DNA of 64,000 nt, taken from a virus. The notes below the pieces were generated by a model. That model made no database searches and had not been told where the DNA came from. It saw only the letters and a program-made list of their open reading frames with translations. Shown in pieces: positions 20,378 to 35,177 of this stretch. The DNA is taken from positions 1-64,000 of IMG/VR virus record IMGVR_UViG_3300024329_000007. One strand, 5' to 3'. How positions within the stretch are numbered: position 1 is the first letter of the stretch; each line of letters opens with the position of its first letter. The translations under genes and the position numbers were made by a program.

Positions 20378-20441
20378 TTTAATTACAGTACTAATATAAT
20401 AAAAAAGCCTGAGACTAAAAAATCTCAGGCCAATTATTTTG
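20378..20441 (-). promoter_or_regulatory. Early-type promoter, copy 2 of the direct repeat
   Basis: Identical 30-bp core and CAATTATTTTG block as copy 1. Confidence 0.7.
20401..20430 (-). terminator. Intrinsic terminator of the late internal-protein operon, embedded in the early promoter spacer
   Basis: GCCTGAGA-N8-TCTCAGGC followed by T6 on the minus strand. Confidence 0.75.
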
Positions 20442-20457
20442 TTAAAGTTATTAACAA

Positions 20458-20937
20458 TTATCCAAACTTTTTAATTGTCTTTGTTAATTCATCTAAAGAT
20501 TTACCAACATGTTCACCAAAATCTGCATGAAGATCTTCATCAGCATCTAAAGGCTGCATATCTCTCCACTCTGTATATTTAGAAACAAACAATTCTGATG
20601 CATCCACTATTTTCTTAATATCGGATTTTGCATAGTCCTTTCCATAGTAACTATTAGGATCTACATCCTGTCTTGCTGTTTCGTCAGTAAATGGATTTTT
20701 AATATCGATGCCATCGTAATCAAAATTAAAAGCCTCAAATGATTTTAAATGCTTCATTCTTTTCTTTTTCTTTTTTTTGTACTCTTCTTCTGCGTCACCC
20801 CTGCCGGCAGGAACATCACCAGAACCTACACCACCATCCATTGGCAATACAACAGGTCCCATTCCGCCCATTCCAGCTGGAGTTATATTTTCATTGATAT
20901 CATCAATGAATGACTCAAATGTTGGTACGTATTTCAT
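20458..20937 (-). CDS. Putative capsid-internal protein with two capsid-targeting-like motifs
   Basis: MKYVPTFESFI...INE and internal MKHLKSFEAF. Confidence 0.55.
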   Translation of the reverse strand: MKYVPTFESFIDDINENITPAGMGGMGPVVLPMDGGVGSGDVPAGRGDAEEEYKKKKKKRMKHLKSFEAFNFDYDGIDIKNPFTDETARQDVDPNSYYGKDYAKSDIKKIVDASELFVSKYTEWRDMQPLDADEDLHADFGEHVGKSLDELTKTIKKFG

Positions 20938-20956
20938 AGTTGTTTTTGTTTTTCAT

Positions 20957-23872
20957 TTACCAAGCGTAATCAAAAGTTTCAATTTTAGATATTTGATCCT
21001 TAATTGTTTTAGCGTAATTTTTAGCTTCTCTTTCGTAGTAAGATTCAGATTGTCCATATCTTTCTTCAGATTCTTCACCCTGTCTAATGTAATCACAATA
21101 TCTAGAATAGTTATCTAAAATATTTGACATGTGATTAGAAGCATCTCTTAATTTAGCTTCTCTACCTTTAGAGTTTTCTCCTATTTTAATTTCATCATAT
21201 CTAGTTTTATTACCACTCGACAATCCGGCTTTAATTTGTTCTGCTAATTCATCAATAGCCTTTTCAACCATTTTATCAATTGGTAAAGAAGCTGCCTTGG
21301 TAGCTAAAATTTGGTGATATCTGTCTGCGTTAGCTTTCTTAAAAGCTGCATCATCTGTAAATGCAGTTGCACCTTCTTTTGCTCTTGCTCTGTCACCTCT
21401 TAAGTTTTCAGTAGAATACTTCTGTCTAATTAGATCTAAGCTTACAATAATAACTCTATCAGAAACTTCTGCAATTCTTTTACCATTACTTAAACCAGAA
21501 GCACCCCAGCCTCTATATTTCTTGTTTACACCAACTTGATCTGCAGAACCTTTTCTACCATCTTTTTTCCATGAAGTTGTCTTAGCCCATCTAGACCAGT
21601 CGTTAGTATAAAATTCTCTATCACCACCCATAGCTGCTAATAAACACCCGCCACCTGGAATTGTGCTCATTGCATTGTATGACCTAGAATCCTGTGGTAA
21701 ATATGGATTCTCTTTTTCATTATCTGAAATAAAGAAAATAATATTTTTAGAACCACCATGGTTTTTAAATGCTTTTTGTGGGTTATTGTCTAAAATAAAA
21801 TCTTCATCTTGTATTTTATCAAGGGCAACTTTAGTCAGTTGGTAAAAACCACCTGCTAATCTAGCTACGTTTTTTCTAGCGTGTTTTCCTTCTTGGTTAC
21901 TTTGTAAAATACCTGATAATATAGCACTAGATATTTTTTCGTTTAATACGTTATATTCTGACTCAGTAGTAGCTGATTCTTCGATAAAACTAGCTAAATG
22001 TCCATCATCATCCCATCCGTATTTAGAATCGGCTAAAACAGCTTCAATATCTTTTCTTTTTCCAGTTAATTCAACTTCTGGATGTCCTCCTGCTGGGCCA
22101 ATCTCTCTTAATACTTTTAATTCAACTTTGTGTTTCTTTAAAAGTTTTTTAAGTCCTTTTGATTCAGGGTCTGTAGCATCCATTATTACAGTAGCTTCAC
22201 ATAATTTTTCGTCTAGCCTATCAAAGAAGTCAAAGTGTTCACTTTGTAAATCTTCACCATACTTTTCGTCCCATATTTCAGCTAATTCATATTTAGTAAC
22301 TTTACCTTTATACTTATCCATGATTTCAACATAGATACTACCATATTCATATTCAAAATCTTCACCATAAGAAAGATCCCATGCCTTTTCAATATCTTTA
22401 AATGTAAGCTTTTTGGCTTTGGCTTCAGTAACTACTGATTCTTTTACGAAATTCTTAAGATCATCTGGATCTATAGAGTATTCTACGTCATCCTCGTCAC
22501 TTCTAAGAACAACTTCATATTTACTTATGTCCCAAATCTTAAATTCGGCATCTTTATTAAGAGTAGATCCATCTACGTCGTTAGTTATATCGTAAACATC
22601 TCCATCAAAATCATCGCTATGGACTGTAGTTTTAATCTTTTGGCCTTTTTTAAATTTAGCCTCGTTAATAGATTTGCTTGAGCTATTAATAAAGCTTGCA
22701 AATGATTCATGTAAAAATTTATTATTCATTTTTTTTGTATTTTTATTTGTTACTTTATAAGTTTTACCATCGAATTCAAATTCTTCGCTGCCCTCTTCAA
22801 TTGCTTTAGCTCTTGCTCCTAAAAATGCGTTACCTTCTCTAACATTATCAGCAGATTCAGTATATAGGTTTACATAATTTCTACCTTTTTCAGAGTAAAT
22901 TGAAGTGATTTTAAATTCACCATCAATTTTCTTACCAGTATCTTTTTTATAGTATTTAGCATAGTAAGCTTTAAAGAATAAGTTTGGTTCTAGTTCTCCA
23001 AAGAAGTGTGTCATTTTACCCATAAAGAATTTAGCAGATGGATAATAAGTTGTTATATCTGCTTTGGTTTCAGCATCTAAAACACCTTTATCGAAATCTT
23101 TTACAAATTTAGCTTCAGTAACTACTGATTCTTTAACAAGAGAATCTGCGTCTATTGCTATTTCACTTGAAAAAGTCTTTAAACCATTAACCACAATCAT
23201 ACCATCTTTTTGTATACGAGTAACTTCACCTGAATCGAATGGTTTTTTAGAACTTCTGCTTAGAATAGAAACTTTATCTCCTACTCTAAATTTAGCTTCA
23301 GTAACTACAGATTCTTTAATTCTATACTTTTTCATTAAAGATTCAGCATCATCAATTGCATCTTGTAATTCTTGATCGCCCAAATCTGCCCAGTATTCAG
23401 ATCCTCTTTCTCCGTCTAAATAATTCTGAGATATTTGTTCCCATTCATTTTCTGCTTTTCTATCATACATTAAAATACTATCAAGGTCTCCGATTCTGTC
23501 TACAAGAGCGTTAACGCTATAATTTCTATTATCAGAGCCAGCCATTGGACCATATTCATTAAGTTCTTTAGACTTAGAAGTTTTATTTAGCTCACCAAGA
23601 ATTTTAATACCCCATCTCGAAAGTGATACACCATCTTCAGATACATTAAAGTATTTTTTATTTCTAGATTTCCATTGTTTATGATCTCCGGAAAGTTCAG
23701 AAATAATTTTAGTAAATTCTTCTTTAGTAATTACACCATCTTTAATAGCCTCAATAACTGAATTTCTTACACTAGCCGTTTTACCAACAGTCCTTGCTGG
23801 ATGGCGTTCTGTATATTTTCGTTTAAGTGTTAGTTTTTTACCTTCACTCAAGAATTCATTAAATTTTTTCAT
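20957..23872 (-). CDS. Modular putative virion-internal polyprotein, 971 aa
   Basis: N-terminus MKKFNEFLSE; three KESVVTEAK repeats plus LNE, VRE, INE, LCE junctions separating unrelated 60-120-aa modules. Confidence 0.6.
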   Translation of the reverse strand: MKKFNEFLSEGKKLTLKRKYTERHPARTVGKTASVRNSVIEAIKDGVITKEEFTKIISELSGDHKQWKSRNKKYFNVSEDGVSLSRWGIKILGELNKTSKSKELNEYGPMAGSDNRNYSVNALVDRIGDLDSILMYDRKAENEWEQISQNYLDGERGSEYWADLGDQELQDAIDDAESLMKKYRIKESVVTEAKFRVGDKVSILSRSSKKPFDSGEVTRIQKDGMIVVNGLKTFSSEIAIDADSLVKESVVTEAKFVKDFDKGVLDAETKADITTYYPSAKFFMGKMTHFFGELEPNLFFKAYYAKYYKKDTGKKIDGEFKITSIYSEKGRNYVNLYTESADNVREGNAFLGARAKAIEEGSEEFEFDGKTYKVTNKNTKKMNNKFLHESFASFINSSSKSINEAKFKKGQKIKTTVHSDDFDGDVYDITNDVDGSTLNKDAEFKIWDISKYEVVLRSDEDDVEYSIDPDDLKNFVKESVVTEAKAKKLTFKDIEKAWDLSYGEDFEYEYGSIYVEIMDKYKGKVTKYELAEIWDEKYGEDLQSEHFDFFDRLDEKLCEATVIMDATDPESKGLKKLLKKHKVELKVLREIGPAGGHPEVELTGKRKDIEAVLADSKYGWDDDGHLASFIEESATTESEYNVLNEKISSAILSGILQSNQEGKHARKNVARLAGGFYQLTKVALDKIQDEDFILDNNPQKAFKNHGGSKNIIFFISDNEKENPYLPQDSRSYNAMSTIPGGGCLLAAMGGDREFYTNDWSRWAKTTSWKKDGRKGSADQVGVNKKYRGWGASGLSNGKRIAEVSDRVIIVSLDLIRQKYSTENLRGDRARAKEGATAFTDDAAFKKANADRYHQILATKAASLPIDKMVEKAIDELAEQIKAGLSSGNKTRYDEIKIGENSKGREAKLRDASNHMSNILDNYSRYCDYIRQGEESEERYGQSESYYEREAKNYAKTIKDQISKIETFDYAW
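22418..23319 (-). repeat. Three dispersed in-frame repeats encoding KESVVTEAK
   Basis: 23288-23319 and 23105-23136 are 31/32 identical; third copy at 22418-22444. Confidence 0.9.
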
Positions 23873-23874
23873 GT

Positions 23875-24270
23875 TTATTTAAGTTTTTTTAATATACCGT
23901 CTATTTCTGTATATGAGCAATTTGCACCCTTAACTATAAATGATCCATAAGAGATTGAAAGGTTTGCACCTTCACCTCCAGTTTTTACTTGAGTTTTATA
24001 TGCTTCTTCTATAGATGCTTGATCTTCAGCAACAGCAACAACTTTAGGTCTAAATCCAGCGCCTACATTATGATCGTCTAAAGATCTTAAATGCATTTGT
24101 TCTCCATTAACTTCTACTGTATTATGTAGTATTAATGCAAAGTGGGTTTCACCCTTACCAGGTAAATCAAAACCATCAAATGCATATTTGCTAAAATAAT
24201 ATGATCCGAATTTTATTTTTTCATTTACTAAACTATTAGTAAATTCTCCAAATGTTTTTGTATTTTTCAT
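23875..24270 (-). CDS. Putative capsid-internal protein
   Basis: MKNTKTFGEFTNSLVNE leader. Confidence 0.55.
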   Translation of the reverse strand: MKNTKTFGEFTNSLVNEKIKFGSYYFSKYAFDGFDLPGKGETHFALILHNTVEVNGEQMHLRSLDDHNVGAGFRPKVVAVAEDQASIEEAYKTQVKTGGEGANLSISYGSFIVKGANCSYTEIDGILKKLK

Positions 24271-24287
24271 ATTAGTATATTATTTTT

Positions 24288-26141
24288 TTATATATTCTTA
24301 ATAAAATCATTAAATGTTTGGAAATCCGTTTTAGTAGATTCTTGCACAACTCCCATAGAGTCTTCCAGTTTAGACTTTAACTCAGCATACATATTATGTA
24401 ATGCCTTTGGTGTTAGCTTCTTAAAGAGCTTCTCATCACCGTCTAACATTGCATTTCTTACCTGTGTTGCTGATATATTCTTACCAGTTCTAGGGATTTC
24501 AAATAAACCAAAGTCATCTCTAACTCCTAGGTCATCTCTATATTCTTGTTTATCTACTTGGAATCCATAAGTTCTCATTCTATCACTTCCTGTTCCCCAT
24601 AATACTGGTTCGTATTTTGGTCTCATTGCATTAAACATAGTGTCAATACCGCCGGTTGGAATTACAAAAACTTCTTCGATTGGATATTTAGATTTTAAAG
24701 AGTTAATCATTGCTACTTGAGTCTCCTCATCATAAGGTCTCTTAAATGCATCCTCTTTTTTCTTGTTCTTAGCTTTTACTAATAATATTACTACTGGGTA
24801 GCCATTTTGTTTATGAATAGTTTCAACTACTTTAGCATGGCCTAGTGTAAATGGTTGGAATCTACCAACAAACATATTAACTAATTTCTTGCCTTGTTCT
24901 GGGTGGTCCACCTTTAATGCTTCTAAAATAGGACTTGTTTGTGATTTTAAATCTTGATTATTTAAGTATGTTTGAAAATTCATAACCTCATCTTCTTTTA
25001 CATCTCCAACAATTAGGCTTTCAATATTAGTGACTATTGTGTTTACTTTTGACATTAAGTCTTTATTAATAATATCTGTTTCTTTAGTTCTCTTTTTTCT
25101 AAAGCTACCTAATGCTATTTTAAAAAGCTCAGATAAAACTTTATTGTTTACTAATGATATTGTTTTCTCATTCTTAATAAACGCTTTATTAAGTTCAAAA
25201 CCTGGAAGTGATGCAAAGTCAGCAGAATTAAAACTAGTTCCGATATACTTAGTAGCATGCTTATCAATATAAGCATTAAAAATAATTGAAATTAGTTCAA
25301 TATATCTTTCATCAGTTTTTTCTGCGTCTAATTGAATTGTATTAAAATCATAACCGCTCATAAATTCAACTAAGTCTAGAATAGACAGTTGATACATGTC
25401 GGATGGTGTTCTATCATTATTATAATCTCTATCAAATCTTTCTAATTTAAAACTTTTTACATTTTTACCTTCATAGAAATTAATAATAAACGAATCTATA
25501 TCTTTATCTAGAGTATTGTTTAATGCAGCACTAGAAGTAGCAGAATTAAATATATTGTAAACTGCTCTAGTAAAAGATTGTTCTTTAAATTTATTTTTAA
25601 AAGCCTCTTCGGAAAGTTCTAATATATCTAATAAGTCATTAACTTGATCTTCTGATAATCTACCTTGAAATATAATTTGAGGTCTTTGTACATCTAATAA
25701 ATCAGACCAATGATAAAGAATATTTGGGTCTCTAATTACCTTTTTAATTTGACTAGGATTAGTTGAACTTATCGTTTGTATGTGTGTTAATATTAAATTA
25801 TTTTTAGGTAAGGCATCGTACTCAATGTCGATTGCTTTTTTAGTTGGTAAATAATCAAAACCAAATTTCCAATCTGTTGGAAGCTTTTCTAAAAGTTTAG
25901 GATCTAAAGATTTAAAATAATTAATTGCATTTTCATAATATTTAACAATAGTCCTATCAACTTTATTCATAGCTATTTTTGAACCACTTTTATAAAATTC
26001 AAATTCTCCATTAGAAGATCTTTTAACATGAAATGAAGAGGCTTGTATCTTTTCAGATATAAGACTTGTTGATTTTATTAACTTAATAAAATCTTGTCTA
26101 TTACTTGATTCAAAATATGTTTTTAGGTTTTGTAATGCCAT
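24288..26141 (-). CDS. Degenerate ligase-like N-terminal domain fused to a cytidylyltransferase-like (HxGH) domain
   Basis: C-terminal GRFQPFTLGH, GSDR, ISATQVR; N-terminal SEKIQAS (degenerate EKxDG); ILE|A junction before the second domain. Confidence 0.7.
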   Translation of the reverse strand: MALQNLKTYFESSNRQDFIKLIKSTSLISEKIQASSFHVKRSSNGEFEFYKSGSKIAMNKVDRTIVKYYENAINYFKSLDPKLLEKLPTDWKFGFDYLPTKKAIDIEYDALPKNNLILTHIQTISSTNPSQIKKVIRDPNILYHWSDLLDVQRPQIIFQGRLSEDQVNDLLDILELSEEAFKNKFKEQSFTRAVYNIFNSATSSAALNNTLDKDIDSFIINFYEGKNVKSFKLERFDRDYNNDRTPSDMYQLSILDLVEFMSGYDFNTIQLDAEKTDERYIELISIIFNAYIDKHATKYIGTSFNSADFASLPGFELNKAFIKNEKTISLVNNKVLSELFKIALGSFRKKRTKETDIINKDLMSKVNTIVTNIESLIVGDVKEDEVMNFQTYLNNQDLKSQTSPILEALKVDHPEQGKKLVNMFVGRFQPFTLGHAKVVETIHKQNGYPVVILLVKAKNKKKEDAFKRPYDEETQVAMINSLKSKYPIEEVFVIPTGGIDTMFNAMRPKYEPVLWGTGSDRMRTYGFQVDKQEYRDDLGVRDDFGLFEIPRTGKNISATQVRNAMLDGDEKLFKKLTPKALHNMYAELKSKLEDSMGVVQESTKTDFQTFNDFIKNI

Positions 26142-26143
26142 TG

Positions 26144-27445
26144 TTATCTACCGTATTTAATAATTCCCATTAATTGATTAATTGCAGCAAAAGTTCCAGT
26201 TAGTTTATAAGTATGTCCTTTATATCTAAATACAAGGCCTTCGGTTGGTATGATAGATTCAATACCTCCAATTCTATCTAAACGTTCTAGTTCTTTAGCT
26301 ACTTTATTTATCTGAGTTATATCTCCGCCCTTTTTAATCTTATCAGCTTCTGTTCTAATTTGATTATGCAGTCTCTGCATTTCTTTATCTGGATTTGCAG
26401 CCACAAAGTTAGAAGCGTTCTTTAAGATAACAGAACCTAATTCTAAGAAAAGATCTTCAAAAGGTCTAATATTTTCTTTATATTTCTTTTTAACATCTTC
26501 TTTGTCAAATCTTTTAACAGCAGCTGCTTCATCTTTTCCTATTTCCTTTGCAAGACTTCTTAGATTAAGTGTTTTCTTATCTCCATAAGCCCATCTTAAT
26601 AATAAGCCTTCTTTATAGTCTTGTTGTAAATCGGGGAAGTTTTTATCAATAGTTTCTCTCCACCACATTTCATGATATCTAGAAACCTCATCTGCATCTG
26701 TTAATCCATAACGATCTCTTAGCGCTTCAACCTTTTTTATAAACTTAAGTTGGTTCTTTTCAAAATCAATATCCTTACCTATCTTAATAATTTGTGGTGG
26801 AATAACTGTAAAGACTTTACCAATATTAGCGTTAACTTTTTCTAAAGCAGCAGCAATTGATTTACCGTACTTAGGCTCTTCGCCAATTATATTACCATTA
26901 CCATCTGTTATTTTAATTCCATGAAATTGAATAACGTCTCTATCATAATAGATAACATTTGGGTTTTTAGAGTAGATAAGCTCCATGTTCATAAAGTTCT
27001 TACCATTATCAAATGCTTCTAAATCTTTATCAGATAACTTGACTAGAGAAGTTGCTAAATCTTTAGCAGCAAAAATATAAGTTTCTTCAACTAATTTTGA
27101 TGCATGTCCAGTAAACATATCGATAATACCATTAAGGTCTAATGGGTTTGCCATTTGTCCTTTATTTCTAGCAAACATTGCTTGGCCATCCTTTACAGTG
27201 ACAAAAAGATTTTGCCCATCAGTTTTTTCAGTAGGCTCTTCTTCAAAATTAAGTTCACCGCTAAGTCCAGATTGGATTAATTTTTTAAAGTCTCCAAATG
27301 TTAATTGTTTATTATCAAATGGATGTGACATGTGTCCTGCGGCACCACCTTCAAGTATTAAAGCCTCATTAACCGAAAATGAAGGAGCCTCTTTCAAAGT
27401 CCTTCTTTCCAGTACAAATTCTCTATAAGATTGTAGTTTTTTCAT
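26144..27445 (-). CDS. RNA/DNA-ligase-like nucleotidyltransferase with a capsid-targeting-like leader
   Basis: Motif I EKTDG, motif IV EGLVF, motif V YKLTG; leader MKKLQSYREFVLE and ILE|GGAAGHMSHPFD. Confidence 0.65.
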   Translation of the reverse strand: MKKLQSYREFVLERRTLKEAPSFSVNEALILEGGAAGHMSHPFDNKQLTFGDFKKLIQSGLSGELNFEEEPTEKTDGQNLFVTVKDGQAMFARNKGQMANPLDLNGIIDMFTGHASKLVEETYIFAAKDLATSLVKLSDKDLEAFDNGKNFMNMELIYSKNPNVIYYDRDVIQFHGIKITDGNGNIIGEEPKYGKSIAAALEKVNANIGKVFTVIPPQIIKIGKDIDFEKNQLKFIKKVEALRDRYGLTDADEVSRYHEMWWRETIDKNFPDLQQDYKEGLLLRWAYGDKKTLNLRSLAKEIGKDEAAAVKRFDKEDVKKKYKENIRPFEDLFLELGSVILKNASNFVAANPDKEMQRLHNQIRTEADKIKKGGDITQINKVAKELERLDRIGGIESIIPTEGLVFRYKGHTYKLTGTFAAINQLMGIIKYGR

Positions 27446-27446
27446 A

Positions 27447-29519
27447 TTATGCTAGTGATGATTGTAAAATTCCTGCACATTTTCCGTAGTCACCATCGCA
27501 TTTTTTTAATATGCCGGCAACAACCTCGTCTGCTTTAGCCTCATCAAATTCTTCTCCAAAAGCTTTTTGTAATACTTCGTATGCGTATTCTTTAAAATCT
27601 TCTTCAGATTTAATTTCAGCCTCGTTTACAGATTCAAAAAGAGAATTAAAATCATCTAATAAAGATTGTCCCATTCTTTCTTCTTTAAGCTCTTGTAAAA
27701 ATAGAGCAGTTCCTTCAACAATCCCTTGGCCAGACCATCCTGCCGCATTAGCGATATCTGAATAGTATTTGTCTAGAATCCTTTTTAAAGTAGTAGTTCC
27801 TAGTTTTACAAAGTGTCCACCTAGACCTGGTAACTTAATCTCTAAAGCCGCCATTTTACCTTTAATGTTTCTAGAAACAATTTTTTCTCTATGGAAGTTA
27901 GCGTCTGTCATTGCTTCTTCAAAAAGATATTTAACACAACCTCTAATAGACTCATGAGACATTGCACCAAAATCTGGTAAAGTCTTATAGAATATTTTCT
28001 TATATTGTGTAACTACCTTTTTAGCATCTCTTTTGCCGTCAACTTTAATAGCTTCATTAACTACTGATTCATTGCACATTGAAACTAATTCTTGTGCAAT
28101 CTTTTTTGCTTTAGAACCTTTATGTCCATAAGATTCAACTGTATCTAAAGCATCTTCCATTTCCATGCCATGTAATTCTCCCATGTCTCCTCCTCTTTCA
28201 TCTAAAAGATCCTGTAAGATATTTTCAGCTTCTGATTCATTAACTACTGATTCAAAATAATCTTCATAGTCAGAGATTGAGTCTGGTCCCCATACATCAG
28301 CTAAAACTTTTTCGATATCTTCTCTTTTACCGGTTAATTTAACTTCTGGGTAACCGTGGTCACCTTCTTCTTTTTGAACTTTCATTTTAACTTTATTCTT
28401 CTTTAAAGATGTAGTTAAGGGTTTAAATTTAGTTGGGTGTATATCGTCATCGTTTCCAAATTCTATACCCGAAAGAGATGTTTCATTAACAACTGATTCA
28501 AAGGTTGATGATGGCATTAGTTCTTTATCGCCATATATGTCTGCTACCAACCAATTTTTATTCTCTTCATCCCATAAATAAACCCACTCAGCGCCGGCTC
28601 CATTTGAAACATCATTTAAATATTGGTCTACTTTTTTATATTGTCCTGTTGTTTGCATGTCACCGCTTTCACCACGATCTCTTCCGTAAAAAATAGTATA
28701 ACCTCTAGTCGGATTAGAAAAACTATGTTTCTTACCTATTGATTTATCTAAAAATGAAATACCAGCCTTTCCTAATTTCATTAATTGCTTAATGTCACTT
28801 TCGCTATATCCTTTTAACATTGGTAGCATGTGCTCTGGGTAACCATCAGAATGTACGTATGTTGATGTGATTTTACCACTCTTACTAAGAATACCAATTT
28901 GAGATCTAGTTGATTCGTTAACCGCAAGCGACTCAAATGCTGGAACTAACTCTGCGTTTCCGTCTACATGTAGCATATACCATTTACCATCTCGCTCGTC
29001 AAAAAGATAAACATATTCTGCCCAACCAATATCTTCTAGATATTTAGACATGTTTTTAATCTTTCCTTTTTGATTTTCCATGTCGCCATAGTAATTCATA
29101 TACCTTGGGTCTTCTTCTAATCCAGAGCTACCTCCATTTTTAAGAACCATGTTTAGTGGCGAACCACCCTTTAAATATGTCATCTTAATAAGTGGTAACA
29201 TTGCTTCTGGATAAGAATCAGCATGTGTGTATACACTTTCTATATTACCTCTTTTGTCTATTTTACCAAAATGGCCTCTAGTGGCTTCTGTTAGTAATAA
29301 AATAGACTCATTAAGGCCTAAATTTTTTAACTTGTCAAAAAATTCAAATCTTTTTTCTTCTTCTAATTCTTTTATTCGAGTTACTCCATATTCAGATAAA
29401 AGTTCTTTAAATAGATCTGCTTCGTTAGATCTTTTAGCGTTCTGTTTTTTCTCTAATGCAACAGTATCTTTTTCATGTTTTGCTGCAGAAAATTCAGCAA
29501 ATGAATTTAATTTCTTCAT
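27447..29519 (-). CDS. Modular putative virion-internal polyprotein, 690 aa
   Basis: MKKLNSFAEF leader; junctions LLTE, ESLAVNE, 3x ESVVNE, ESVNE; two tandem (A/S)TR..HxDxYPE modules. Confidence 0.6.
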   Translation of the reverse strand: MKKLNSFAEFSAAKHEKDTVALEKKQNAKRSNEADLFKELLSEYGVTRIKELEEEKRFEFFDKLKNLGLNESILLLTEATRGHFGKIDKRGNIESVYTHADSYPEAMLPLIKMTYLKGGSPLNMVLKNGGSSGLEEDPRYMNYYGDMENQKGKIKNMSKYLEDIGWAEYVYLFDERDGKWYMLHVDGNAELVPAFESLAVNESTRSQIGILSKSGKITSTYVHSDGYPEHMLPMLKGYSESDIKQLMKLGKAGISFLDKSIGKKHSFSNPTRGYTIFYGRDRGESGDMQTTGQYKKVDQYLNDVSNGAGAEWVYLWDEENKNWLVADIYGDKELMPSSTFESVVNETSLSGIEFGNDDDIHPTKFKPLTTSLKKNKVKMKVQKEEGDHGYPEVKLTGKREDIEKVLADVWGPDSISDYEDYFESVVNESEAENILQDLLDERGGDMGELHGMEMEDALDTVESYGHKGSKAKKIAQELVSMCNESVVNEAIKVDGKRDAKKVVTQYKKIFYKTLPDFGAMSHESIRGCVKYLFEEAMTDANFHREKIVSRNIKGKMAALEIKLPGLGGHFVKLGTTTLKRILDKYYSDIANAAGWSGQGIVEGTALFLQELKEERMGQSLLDDFNSLFESVNEAEIKSEEDFKEYAYEVLQKAFGEEFDEAKADEVVAGILKKCDGDYGKCAGILQSSLA
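28053..28500 (-). repeat. Three dispersed in-frame repeats encoding ESVVNE
   Basis: TTCATTAAC(T/A)ACTGATTCA at 28053-28071, 28236-28254 and 28482-28500 (plus strand). Confidence 0.9.
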
Positions 29520-29552
29520 CTTTTATATTTTTTTATTTTTTATAGTATTAGA

Positions 29553-31061
29553 TTATATATCCCCCTCAAAAGTTACGTTTTTAATATCATACTTAAACTT
29601 CTGTTCTTTATAGATTTTCTGCCTAGCTTTTGAGTGTCTTATTAAGTAGTTATCCCAATCCGGTGAGCTTAAGTCATCTACAAAGTCAATAATGTTTACA
29701 CTATCCTTTGATTTATGTTGCCTTAAACCTCTACCAATAGATTGCCTAATGATTACTTCTGATTTAAATGATTCTGTAAAGAATATGTTGTGGATTTTCT
29801 TGATGGATATACCAGTTGAGAATGTACCGTATGAAGCGACGATAACGACTTCTTCTCCGGCTTCCATTTTCTTTTTATATTCTTCTCTAATATCTTTATC
29901 AATTCCGCCATCAACATAATAAACTATTTTATTACTTTCTTGCCTAAGTTTGTCATATATCTTTCGGCCATGTTCAATTCTGTGAAAAAGAACGAGGCTA
30001 TTTCTCTTAACTCTTGAAATTACACTTGTTATAAAGTTAAGTCTTCCAGGGGAATTAATTATATAGTTCTGTTCAAATTTAAAAACATCCTTGCTTTCAT
30101 ATCTATTCTGTGACATCTCTCTAAAAGCATCCTTTGTAGATTGTGCAGCATAATCCATTTTAATTACCTTAACGTGACATTGTGCAATATGTCCTTCATT
30201 TTGTAAAAAGTTTGCAGACACCTCCGTAATTACCGGTCCAGTATAAGCCATAAGAGTAAGTCTATCCAATGTGTTTGCTTTTGGTATTGTACCAGAGAGT
30301 CCGCTTCTATATTCAGCGTTAACACATTTTTGTAGAATAGTTTTAATTGATGTAGACTTGGCCTTATGTGTTTCATCAATAATAACAGCATCAAACTGTT
30401 CAAAATATTCTTTATCTTTTTTAACAAGGGATTGATAAGTACCAACTACTACATTTCTACCCGGCCTAATCTTTTGGCCAGAATAGATTTGTTGTACTTT
30501 AATATTTGCCCTGCCTTTCCAATTATAGTCTAAAAAATCTTCAGTGGCCTGTACTACAAGAGAAACATTAGGTACAATAAAGAGTATTCTTTTTGCCTTT
30601 TGTTTTTCTAACATATATGCTACTGTAAGAAATGAAATTAAAGTTTTCCCGGCAGAAGTTGCTAATTCAGATAAGCACTTTCTAAATTTAAGGATGTTAA
30701 ATGCAGCCTCAATCTGATAATCTCTTGGAGTTATTTGAGAGCCCTCAAAAAATTCTAAGGCCCATTCGGTAAAAGTTTCTTGATTAATATTTCTATCAAA
30801 CAATTCAGTAATACCATTTATTTTTAATTCGTATTTATATTCTTTACAAACATTCATCACTTCTCGCCAAAGACCAGAAGGAATCCATTTGTCATCTTTT
30901 ATATAAGATATGTAGCCATCCCATAGTCCCTTTTTAACCAATGGGTGAAATCTCCAATTTTCTACCCTACGGTTTAAAGAAATATTGAGCTGTTCGATTT
31001 CCATTTCTGTAGCCGAATCAACTCTTAGCAATTGCTTATTATCTGTTAAACTTATTTCCAC
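29553..31061 (-). CDS. uvsW: SF2 RNA-DNA/DNA-DNA helicase
   Basis: PRDYQ, TSAGKT, DETH, SGT, STGISI, QSIGRGLR. Confidence 0.95.
   Translation of the reverse strand: MEISLTDNKQLLRVDSATEMEIEQLNISLNRRVENWRFHPLVKKGLWDGYISYIKDDKWIPSGLWREVMNVCKEYKYELKINGITELFDRNINQETFTEWALEFFEGSQITPRDYQIEAAFNILKFRKCLSELATSAGKTLISFLTVAYMLEKQKAKRILFIVPNVSLVVQATEDFLDYNWKGRANIKVQQIYSGQKIRPGRNVVVGTYQSLVKKDKEYFEQFDAVIIDETHKAKSTSIKTILQKCVNAEYRSGLSGTIPKANTLDRLTLMAYTGPVITEVSANFLQNEGHIAQCHVKVIKMDYAAQSTKDAFREMSQNRYESKDVFKFEQNYIINSPGRLNFITSVISRVKRNSLVLFHRIEHGRKIYDKLRQESNKIVYYVDGGIDKDIREEYKKKMEAGEEVVIVASYGTFSTGISIKKIHNIFFTESFKSEVIIRQSIGRGLRQHKSKDSVNIIDFVDDLSSPDWDNYLIRHSKARQKIYKEQKFKYDIKNVTFEGDI
29554..29561 (-). promoter_or_regulatory. 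GATATATA late-type promoter of the internal-protein operon
   Basis: Motif overlaps the end of uvsW, about 35 nt upstream of the 690-aa gene; it recurs before other late genes. Confidence 0.6.
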
Positions 31062-34775: not shown

Positions 34776-35150
34776 TTAAATTCTTTTACCCATTGCAGCA
34801 CCAAGAGCGGCACCAACTAATCTGGAAGTTAATAAATCGTAAAAAATACCTTTTTGAATTCCTAAAACTTTAGCAATAACCTTTCCAATTGATTTACCTA
34901 ATGCAAATCCAGCTAAACCACCTATAATAGAACCTAGAATACCTTCATTAGTCATCTCTTCATTTAAACGATCTAAATCATAAGTACCATCCTTTCTTTT
35001 ATATTCAGCTTCAAATGCTTCAATAGCCGCATCTACTTCAGCTTCTAATTCTGGAGTCCACTCTTCTTGTAAGCCCTCTTTGACTAAAGAATAGTCCTGC
35101 TCACTAATTTCGTTTTCTACTAAATAATCGTTAAATGTTTTCATATTCAT
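34776..35150 (-). CDS. Putative virion-internal protein with a glycine-zipper membrane segment
   Basis: MNMKTFNDYLVE leader, acidic N-half, then NE|GILGSIIGGLAGFALG...LVGAALGAAMG. Confidence 0.6.
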   Translation of the reverse strand: MNMKTFNDYLVENEISEQDYSLVKEGLQEEWTPELEAEVDAAIEAFEAEYKRKDGTYDLDRLNEEMTNEGILGSIIGGLAGFALGKSIGKVIAKVLGIQKGIFYDLLTSRLVGAALGAAMGKRI

Positions 35151-35177
35151 AATATTTTTTATAAAGTATATATCTTT

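Follow-up and report, generated by a model that had tools for sequence, protein, structure and literature searches.

A 64,000-nucleotide window of viral DNA (positions 1 to 64,000 of the IMG/VR record IMGVR_UViG_3300024329_000007) carries two minus-strand genes whose products, of 971 and 690 amino acids (aa), are strings of small modules joined by near-identical linkers. We find it modestly probable that both are capsid-targeted cargo polyproteins cut by the head protease, a variant of the T4 internal-protein system. The features read directly are the gene structure, the linker motif, the shuffling of modules, a rule at the module junctions, the tags and head protease of relatives, and the predicted domain boundaries. 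A first-pass annotation of the window had proposed such a system, and its two open reading frames (ORFs) were recovered on the minus strand, at the coordinates and lengths it gave (Table 1).

The 971-aa protein opens with the leader MKKFNEFLSE and the 690-aa protein with MKKLNSFAEF. The repeated linkers described in the first pass are indeed present: KESVVTEAK stands at residues 186-194, 247-255 and 477-485 of the 971-aa protein, and the 690-aa protein contains ESLAVNE, ESVVNE three times and ESVNE. Altogether eight copies of ES..V[NT]E were counted, confined to these two of 78 ORFs (26,365 aa); the composition-based expectation for ESVV[NT]E is ~0.004 copies. The weaker junctions ELNE, SINE, KLCE, VLNE and LLTE are real module boundaries as well, since homologues break at them. 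Predicted modules measure 6-17 kDa, plus one of 37 kDa, and are of mixed charge, about half of them being acidic. Contrary to their first-pass description, they are not all mutually unrelated: residues 79-202 and 203-346 of the 690-aa protein are phrog_1987 paralogues, and a phrog_5922-like cassette occurs in both proteins.

Of all observations, the junctions appear to argue most strongly that one common protease does the cutting. With the conserved first residues of 11 module families as anchors, the upstream residues were read in 330 proteins, giving 872 junctions in 288 distinct sequence contexts. P1, the residue at -1, is Glu in 871 of the 872, the sole exception being a protein start; P3 is Val, Ile or Leu in 861 (98.7%). 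P2 and P4-P8 vary widely: VVNE, EVFE, PICE, SIHE, LIEE, KLEE, LVME and FLNE all occur. The gp21 protease of T4 cuts after Glu in L/I-x-E, originally observed as a Glu-Ala bond (PMC9026906). At the level of the motif, the junctions would offer the exposed aliphatic-x-Glu site of T4-type head cargo. Neither a passive spacer nor a pure DNA joint gives a reason to fix just P1 and P3.

The DNA of the linkers is itself conserved and reads GAA TCW GTA GTT AMT GAA GCT AAA. Across relatives, the valine pair is fixed as GTA then GTT, against background usage, and serine is never encoded by AGY. Because this codon choice is fixed against the background, the linkers are related by descent or conversion, and 18-24 nt of homology are available for cassette exchange. 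Such homology accounts for how shuffling occurs, not for why divergent linkers also follow the junction rule. A start of translation within the protein, at the Met of the last linker, was rejected as a general account, the other linkers having no Met.

The N-terminal tag of the 971-aa protein resembles the T4 capsid-targeting sequence (CTS), MKTYQEFIAE (PMC8442874), in which targeting depends on residues 4 and 7 and processing on residues 8 and 10 (PMC9026906). In 65 aligned homologues of the 971-aa family, M1, F4, F7, L8, E10 and G11 are each at least 90% conserved; judged from these alignments, the family has the T4-type determinants at positions 4, 7, 8 and 10. The 690-aa family keeps F7 and F10 with an N-terminal extension of three residues, and the window's copy has no aliphatic-x-Glu end.

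Over the whole record, the core of the tag (aromatic-x-[EDQSN]-aromatic) is found at the N-terminus of 10 of the 78 ORFs, compared with 2.3% of internal 12-residue windows. Five of these ten are five of the six genes of the transcription unit described below; two or three seem to match by chance, e.g. the gp46-like and aGPT-like proteins. Among relatives, this tag stands on small acidic proteins encoded between the portal and protease genes, at the position of T4 gp67/gp68 (e.g. MKIIKTFEEFIQE and MKYLRLFEQFLSE; slashes mark predicted cuts here and below), and the gene after the major capsid protein also starts with it. In G004, a more distant relative of 149 kb, 24 ORFs are tagged. Six genes in a row, for proteins of 132-322 aa (G004:C1:101694-106765), have nearly the same 13-residue leader MKY(I/L)K.(F/Y)E(E/Q)F(L/V).E in front of unrelated bodies, an array that by analogy resembles the T4 internal-protein locus. 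None of the cassettes in the polyproteins compared here recurs in G004's single tagged genes.

The source record is 79.9 kb long, with a CheckV completeness of 27%, i.e. a fragment. The window has a G+C content of ~31%, and its minus strand holds nearly all genes. T4-like replication genes are present (gp46/47-like, ribonucleotide reductase, DNA polymerase and a UvsW-like helicase), along with baseplate and tail genes. The nearest matches of the structural proteins lie in uncultured huge phages (LR7565xx), Lak phages, Tenacibaculum phages pT24 and PTm1, Chryseobacterium and Flavobacterium phages, and Sphingomonas phage PAU. Because of these similarities and the T4-like gene content, the phage is assigned to the T4-related jumbo myophages; its host is probably a marine Bacteroidota. 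Homologues of the polyproteins are also found in Tara Oceans data.

A gp21-type protease exists in the relatives: the Peptidase_S77 domain exceeds the Pfam cut-off in five of five, between the portal and gp23-type capsid genes. The record itself has no Peptidase_S77 gene and stops before the head module. It is collinear with the relative G001, whose head module begins ~7 kb past the gp46-like gene; by this gene order, the protease would be expected ~7 kb beyond the record's left end. In the relatives, the protease forms one polypeptide with a scaffold-like region that is acidic and rich in repeats, (L/I/V)-A-E being abundant among them, with RVNE/S after the protease domain. At L031 the protease domain makes up the N-terminal ~175 residues of its ORF, which runs from position 1426 onward. 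The scaffold-like part of four such proteins (L030-L033, from G005, G001, G004 and G002) spans 450-600 residues with tandem (L/I/V)AE repeats, those of G005 being extremely acidic and E-rich. The capsid protein has three (I/L)-x-E sites within its first 44 residues. Placing its maturation site through an alignment with T4 gp23 was abandoned, the N-terminal alignment being too weak (i-Evalue 64).

Metagenomic homologues number at least 539 for the 971-aa protein and at least 769 for the 690-aa protein, on contigs of up to ~250 kb. The 971-aa family conserves its tagged N-module (~100 residues) and a 326-residue C-domain at 65-82% identity, with a variable set of cassettes between them: 36 different architectures occur among 120 homologues. 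The middle cassettes are gained, lost, reordered and exchanged, also between the two genes, and the end modules are kept. The 690-aa family is built alike, with cassettes movable between the families. One cassette of the window's 690-aa protein is part of a 971-aa homologue (P0114), and in another protein (P0232) the 971-type N-module, devoid of its tag, stands as an internal cassette. Order, number and host gene change freely, which argues that the modules can function independently of their neighbours.

The loci can be ordered from single genes to arrays. At a distant locus (L021) the C-domain is a stand-alone gene with its own leader, starting MNKIHTTFESFVNESLEVNE, with a stop codon two codons upstream; at L025 only tag, N-module and C-domain are present; other loci have full cassette arrays. 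The junction in front of the C-domain is a full leader, NMKNEINLFESFSDFVGANFLNE, in most homologues. As the leader core FESFVNE and the linker FESVVNE are one residue apart, the linkers look like shortened copies of the N-terminal tag. Small genes composed of a leader and one module exist too, and such a module also recurs inside a cassette array, preceded by ESVVTE. Several jumbo phages, among them CcrColossus and GAP32, encode the phrog_1987 module as a gene of its own. In CcrColossus this is gp083, which opens with MATRS and whose residue 2 aligns to the residue after AVNE (residue 203 of the 690-aa protein): Met aside, free-standing phrog_1987 proteins start right behind the predicted cut.

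For the 690-aa protein, AlphaFold gives a mean predicted local distance difference test score (pLDDT) of 72.5 and a predicted template modelling score (pTM) of 0.35, values that point to domains which are well formed but hold no fixed position relative to one another. Each of the six junctions overlaps a segment with pLDDT <50, that at 423-428 bordering segment 419-422 (permutation p ~4e-4). The linkers accordingly sit between predicted domains and are not buried within them, which was the outcome that the first-pass annotation had asked of such a model. The model of the 971-aa protein is poor (mean pLDDT 56) and adds little.

Searches of both models against the PDB with Foldseek gave no match at E <= 0.001. 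Pfam (module-wise for 15 modules), PHROGs and NCBIfam, searched with the whole polyproteins and with single modules, returned nothing above cut-off except PHROGs with no assigned function. A Syd/SUKH-2 hint at residues 484-559 (E = 0.02) fell below the cut-off and was not used. For the C-domain, a PDB sequence search and the protein atlas gave nothing.

The natural unit exceeds the two polyprotein ORFs: it comprises six genes, from a GATATATA motif to a strong terminator-like hairpin. The block spans 20406-29561 on the minus strand and encodes, in order, proteins of 690, 433, 617, 131, 971 and 159 aa, with intergenic gaps of 1-19 nt. Within it, the minus strand has no further terminator-like site besides the hairpin at 20406..20431. 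A UvsW-like helicase gene lies on one side of the unit and hypothetical genes on the other; the surrounding genes serve replication and nucleotide metabolism, and the nearest structural genes are ~20 kb away.

The GATATATA motif occurs ten times in the window with a coding-to-other strand split of 10:0 (sites e.g. 29554, 35167, 49126 and 62894), and in the collinear G001 20 copies lie on the coding strand versus 1 on the opposite. In both, it is mostly found at most ~130 nt 5' of start codons. The G001 sites stand directly 5' of the head-core gene, the protease-scaffold gene, the post-capsid-protein gene and the 690-aa homologue. The total count in the window shows no excess over chance, and the motif draws its weight only from the strand bias and from its position at the head genes of G001. 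On these grounds it is a suggestive candidate for the late promoter of the clade. As the motif is common to the unit and the head genes in G001, co-expression of the two is suggested. A separate CATATAAT-like motif precedes several replication genes.

Table 1. Coordinates of the six-gene unit, its signals, and the modules and junctions of the two polyproteins (window positions; a slash marks the predicted cut).
Feature	Position	Strand	Details
Promoter-like motif GATATATA	29554..29561	-	upstream of the six-gene unit
690-aa cassette polyprotein, first part	27447..29519	-	tagged helical N-module 1-78; phrog_1987 paralogues 79-202 and 203-346
690-aa cassette polyprotein, remainder	27447..29519	-	phrog_5922-like cassette 347-428; modules 429-489, 490-633, 634-690
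Junction LLTE/A, 690-aa residues 75-78	29286..29297	-	pLDDT <50 at 71-78; homologues LIEE/G, VLNE/G, LIIE/G
Linker ESLAVNE/S, 690-aa residues 196-202	28914..28934	-	pLDDT <50 at 196-203
Linker ESVVNE/T, 690-aa residues 341-346	28482..28499	-	pLDDT <50 at 342-366
Linker ESVVNE/S, 690-aa residues 423-428	28236..28253	-	borders low-confidence 419-422; modelled within a helix
Linker ESVVNE/A, 690-aa residues 484-489	28053..28070	-	pLDDT <50 at 485-488
Linker ESVNE/A, 690-aa residues 629-633	27621..27635	-	pLDDT <50 at 631-634
433-aa tagged protein (MKKLQSYREFVLE, then SFSVNE/A), DUF6267-like	26144..27445	-	tag retained in G001 and G004 homologues
617-aa protein, C-terminal NMNAT-type nucleotidyltransferase domain, partial tag	24288..26141	-	PF01467 E = 2.6e-9; NCBIfam adenylyltransferase models
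131-aa one-module tagged gene (MKNTKTFGEFTNSLVNE/K)	23875..24270	-	sequence
Ten-residue capsid-targeting-like tag MKKFNEFLSE	23843..23872	-	positions match T4 CTS determinants
971-aa cassette polyprotein	20957..23872	-	tag 1-10, basic N-module 11-106, six variable cassettes 107-645, C-domain 646-971
Linker ESVVTE/A, 971-aa residues 187-192	23297..23314	-	sequence
Linker ESVVTE/A, 971-aa residues 248-253	23114..23131	-	sequence
Linker ESVVTE/A, 971-aa residues 478-483	22424..22441	-	sequence
Degenerate internal leader ending VLNE/K, before C-domain, ~residues 612-645	21938..22039	-	homologues: full leader NMKNEINLFESFSDFVGANFLNE/
159-aa tagged gene (MKYVPTFESFIDDINE/N), second internal leader MKHLKSFEAF	20458..20937	-	sequence
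Terminator-like hairpin, 11-bp stem then T run	20406..20431	-	27 nt past the last gene

From these observations we infer targeting, cutting, retention, injection and a role of the modules in the host, as follows. The six genes, from 29519 down to 20458, would form one late transcription unit for capsid cargo. Most of its proteins start with what would be a T4-type tag: an aromatic residue, two residues, an aromatic, an aliphatic, one residue and Glu. Through this tag they would dock on the scaffolding core while the prohead assembles. The two polyproteins, of 971 and 690 aa, would each bring in 7-8 independently folding modules, joined by shortened copies of the tag that end in (V/I/L)-x-Glu. 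A gp21-type protease, activated in the closed prohead, would then cut after the Glu of each linker. The freed modules, similar in size to T4 IPI*, would remain in the head and exit with the DNA at infection. With linkers near-identical in DNA, recombination there could swap, add and delete cassettes, also between both genes.

Several points weigh against this reading. The N-module and C-domain of the 971-aa family, at 65-82% identity, look more like parts with a core function than like arms-race cargo, and these conserved end modules may have a role in the virion instead of being effectors. Profile and fold searches gave no module a recognisable function. P3 is mostly Val in the linkers, as opposed to Leu/Ile in the T4 rule, and the 690-aa leader has no canonical cut site after its tag; it may target without being removed, and CTS variants of T4 exist that target yet escape processing (PMC9026906). 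Two linkers are modelled as helix, at low confidence. The biased linker codons (GTA GTT, no AGY serine) leave room for descent and recombination, which could explain part of the similarity. The source record is a 27% fragment without a head module of its own. Finally, no cultured relative with polyprotein genes is found among 50,697 phage records: a megablast search gave no match there, nor did tblastn with the 971-aa protein, the head-core protein or the shared cassette, and consequently no published virion proteome can be used for the polyproteins.

Three other explanations were weighed. The proteins could be uncleaved 'beads on a string', similar to polyvalent proteins, with modules acting tethered, packaged or not, and a linker that is only a spacer reused by recombination. 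Their multidomain build with free domain order is that of polyvalent proteins, some of which are delivered unprocessed, e.g. the N4 virion RNA polymerase (PMC5512222); the conserved linker DNA with its biased codons and the helix modelled at two linkers would also suit a spacer. We nevertheless consider this unlikely: a spacer has no reason to fix only Glu at -1 and Val, Ile or Leu at -3 over 288 contexts, the linkers are apparently truncated copies of the N-terminal tag that end in the same motif, and neither known conflict domains nor a peptidase domain were found in the polyproteins.

It is also conceivable that loading and cutting occur as proposed, but that the products are accessories of the prohead core or scaffold, like T4 gp67/gp68, which are degraded or inert and not delivered as effectors. 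Hypervariable cassettes, with 36 architectures in 120 homologues, are unlike assembly parts; the modules are predicted folded domains, one of them free-standing in unrelated jumbo phages, and enzyme-like proteins bear the same tag. This makes a core role rather improbable, despite the tagged small acidic proteins at the gp67/gp68 position in relatives, the strong conservation of the end modules, the acidity of roughly half of the modules and the cutting of T4 core proteins into multiple fragments (PMC9026906). Least probable, to us, is that linkers and leaders are recombination scars between small leader-bearing genes, the leader serving another purpose, such as translation initiation or localisation, and the products being ordinary cytoplasmic proteins. 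Near-identical runs of 18-24 nt at the linkers with non-background codons, the position of the operon amid replication and nucleotide-metabolism genes, and the fusion series from single genes to arrays would all agree with scars. Against them, divergent junctions of unrelated DNA (EVFE, PICE, LIEE, KLEE, LVME and others) keep Glu at -1 and an aliphatic residue at -3, head-module genes carry the tag, the tag matches the determinant positions of the T4 CTS, and the promoter-like motif is common with head genes. Cargo polyproteins cut by the head protease thus remain the reading that we prefer.

The other members of the unit add enzyme-like candidates to the cargo. The 433-aa protein contains the motifs GGAAGHMSHPFD and EKTDGQN, the latter similar to the KxDG of nucleotidyl transferases and ligases, and its tag is kept in three lineages; it could perhaps be read as a nucleotidyl transferase or ligase from this motif, and PDB sequence and protein atlas searches returned DUF6267 only. 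In the 617-aa protein, the NMNAT-type domain covers residues 423-563 and the N-terminal half has no recognised family. This protein ends in a tag-like tail, KTDFQTFNDFIKNI, right before the next tagged gene, as though the next leader had been duplicated. The 159-aa protein has a Gly-rich peptide, GGMGPVVLP.DGGVGSGDVP, followed by a Lys run and then by the internal leader with its own Met; the Gly-rich peptide recurs in a 325-aa protein of another locus (L013).

Two tagged ORFs lie outside the unit. One of 124 aa (MNMKTFNDYLVENE), at 34776-35150 on the minus strand, has a GATATATA site just 5' of it, at 35167-35174, and is conserved, tag included, in G001 and G004. The other, of 385 aa (G000:C1:64591-65748, plus strand), begins 591 bases past the end of the window with MNLHNFADFKLLTE/AK, i.e. 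the same tag and junction.

More tentatively, we envisage a protein-level cassette system that is widespread in uncultured marine T4-like jumbo phages: one tag would load the string, the head protease would release its parts, the linkers would double as recombination joints, and tagged enzymes would be delivered ready-made. In this same tentative picture, the linkers would let the payload be re-assorted quickly, also between genes, so that virion-delivered proteins would be exchanged much as integrons exchange their cassettes. Delivery of many independent proteins through cleavable polyproteins is not known from tailed phages, and our literature searches found no description of such cassette polyproteins. 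If the picture is true, a single tag and a single protease would account for the way large phages pack a diverse and fast-changing payload, and the cassettes would make up a catalogue of proteins of abundant marine phages that are candidates for early, possibly anti-defence, action. With the grammar of tag and linker, engineered T4-type capsids could be loaded with several proteins at fixed ratios, and (V/I/L)-x-E at module junctions behind a CTS-like tag provides a sequence rule for mining metagenomes.

Among known systems, the internal proteins of T4 are similar in their N-terminal tag of about ten residues with aromatics at positions 4 and 7, an aliphatic residue at 8 and Glu at 10, in cutting after aliphatic-x-Glu by an S77 prohead protease (here predicted), and in their small, diverse cargo, the mature IPI* (76 residues) belonging to the size class of the modules described here. 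Contrary to T4, where one-module genes are cut once, up to eight modules share a polypeptide here, with mini-tags between them, and cassettes pass from gene to gene. The two show no sequence homology, and P3 is mostly Val here.

Polyvalent proteins (Iyer et al. 2017, PMC5512222) likewise unite many independent domains in a polypeptide that is proposed to travel with the DNA; they undergo extensive domain shuffling, and some are proteolytically processed. Known conflict domains are their defining feature, frequently accompanied by a metallopeptidase of their own or by MuF/portal fusions, and they lack a stereotyped linker. In the present case, Pfam and fold searches of the polyproteins and 15 modules revealed no conflict or effector domain (ART, nucleases, MPTase, lysozyme etc.), and in place of linkage to a portal/MuF gene or a conjugation apparatus, the structural genes lie ~20 kb away. 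Processing would occur in trans, by the prohead protease at a repeated site.

In the giant phages phiKZ, 201phi2-1 and SPN3US (PMC9026906), too, a gp21-related protease cuts many head proteins after Glu, some of them multiply, and the capsid contains a large cargo of inner-body and ejection proteins. Their motif is S/A(/G)-x-E, and the cuts remove propeptides instead of releasing strings of cassettes. P3 is V/I/L and not S/A/G in our proteins, which found no match in the phage collection. The phiKZ-type phages form a different clade from the Bacteroidota-type jumbo myophages considered here, with no sequence relation. Finally, the polyproteins of RNA viruses and retroviruses are similar in having one translation product, a viral protease and a stereotyped site between functional units. 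Their lineage and protease are unrelated; here, the cutting would take place in a closed capsid, and the units would be swappable accessory cargo rather than a core replication or structural set.

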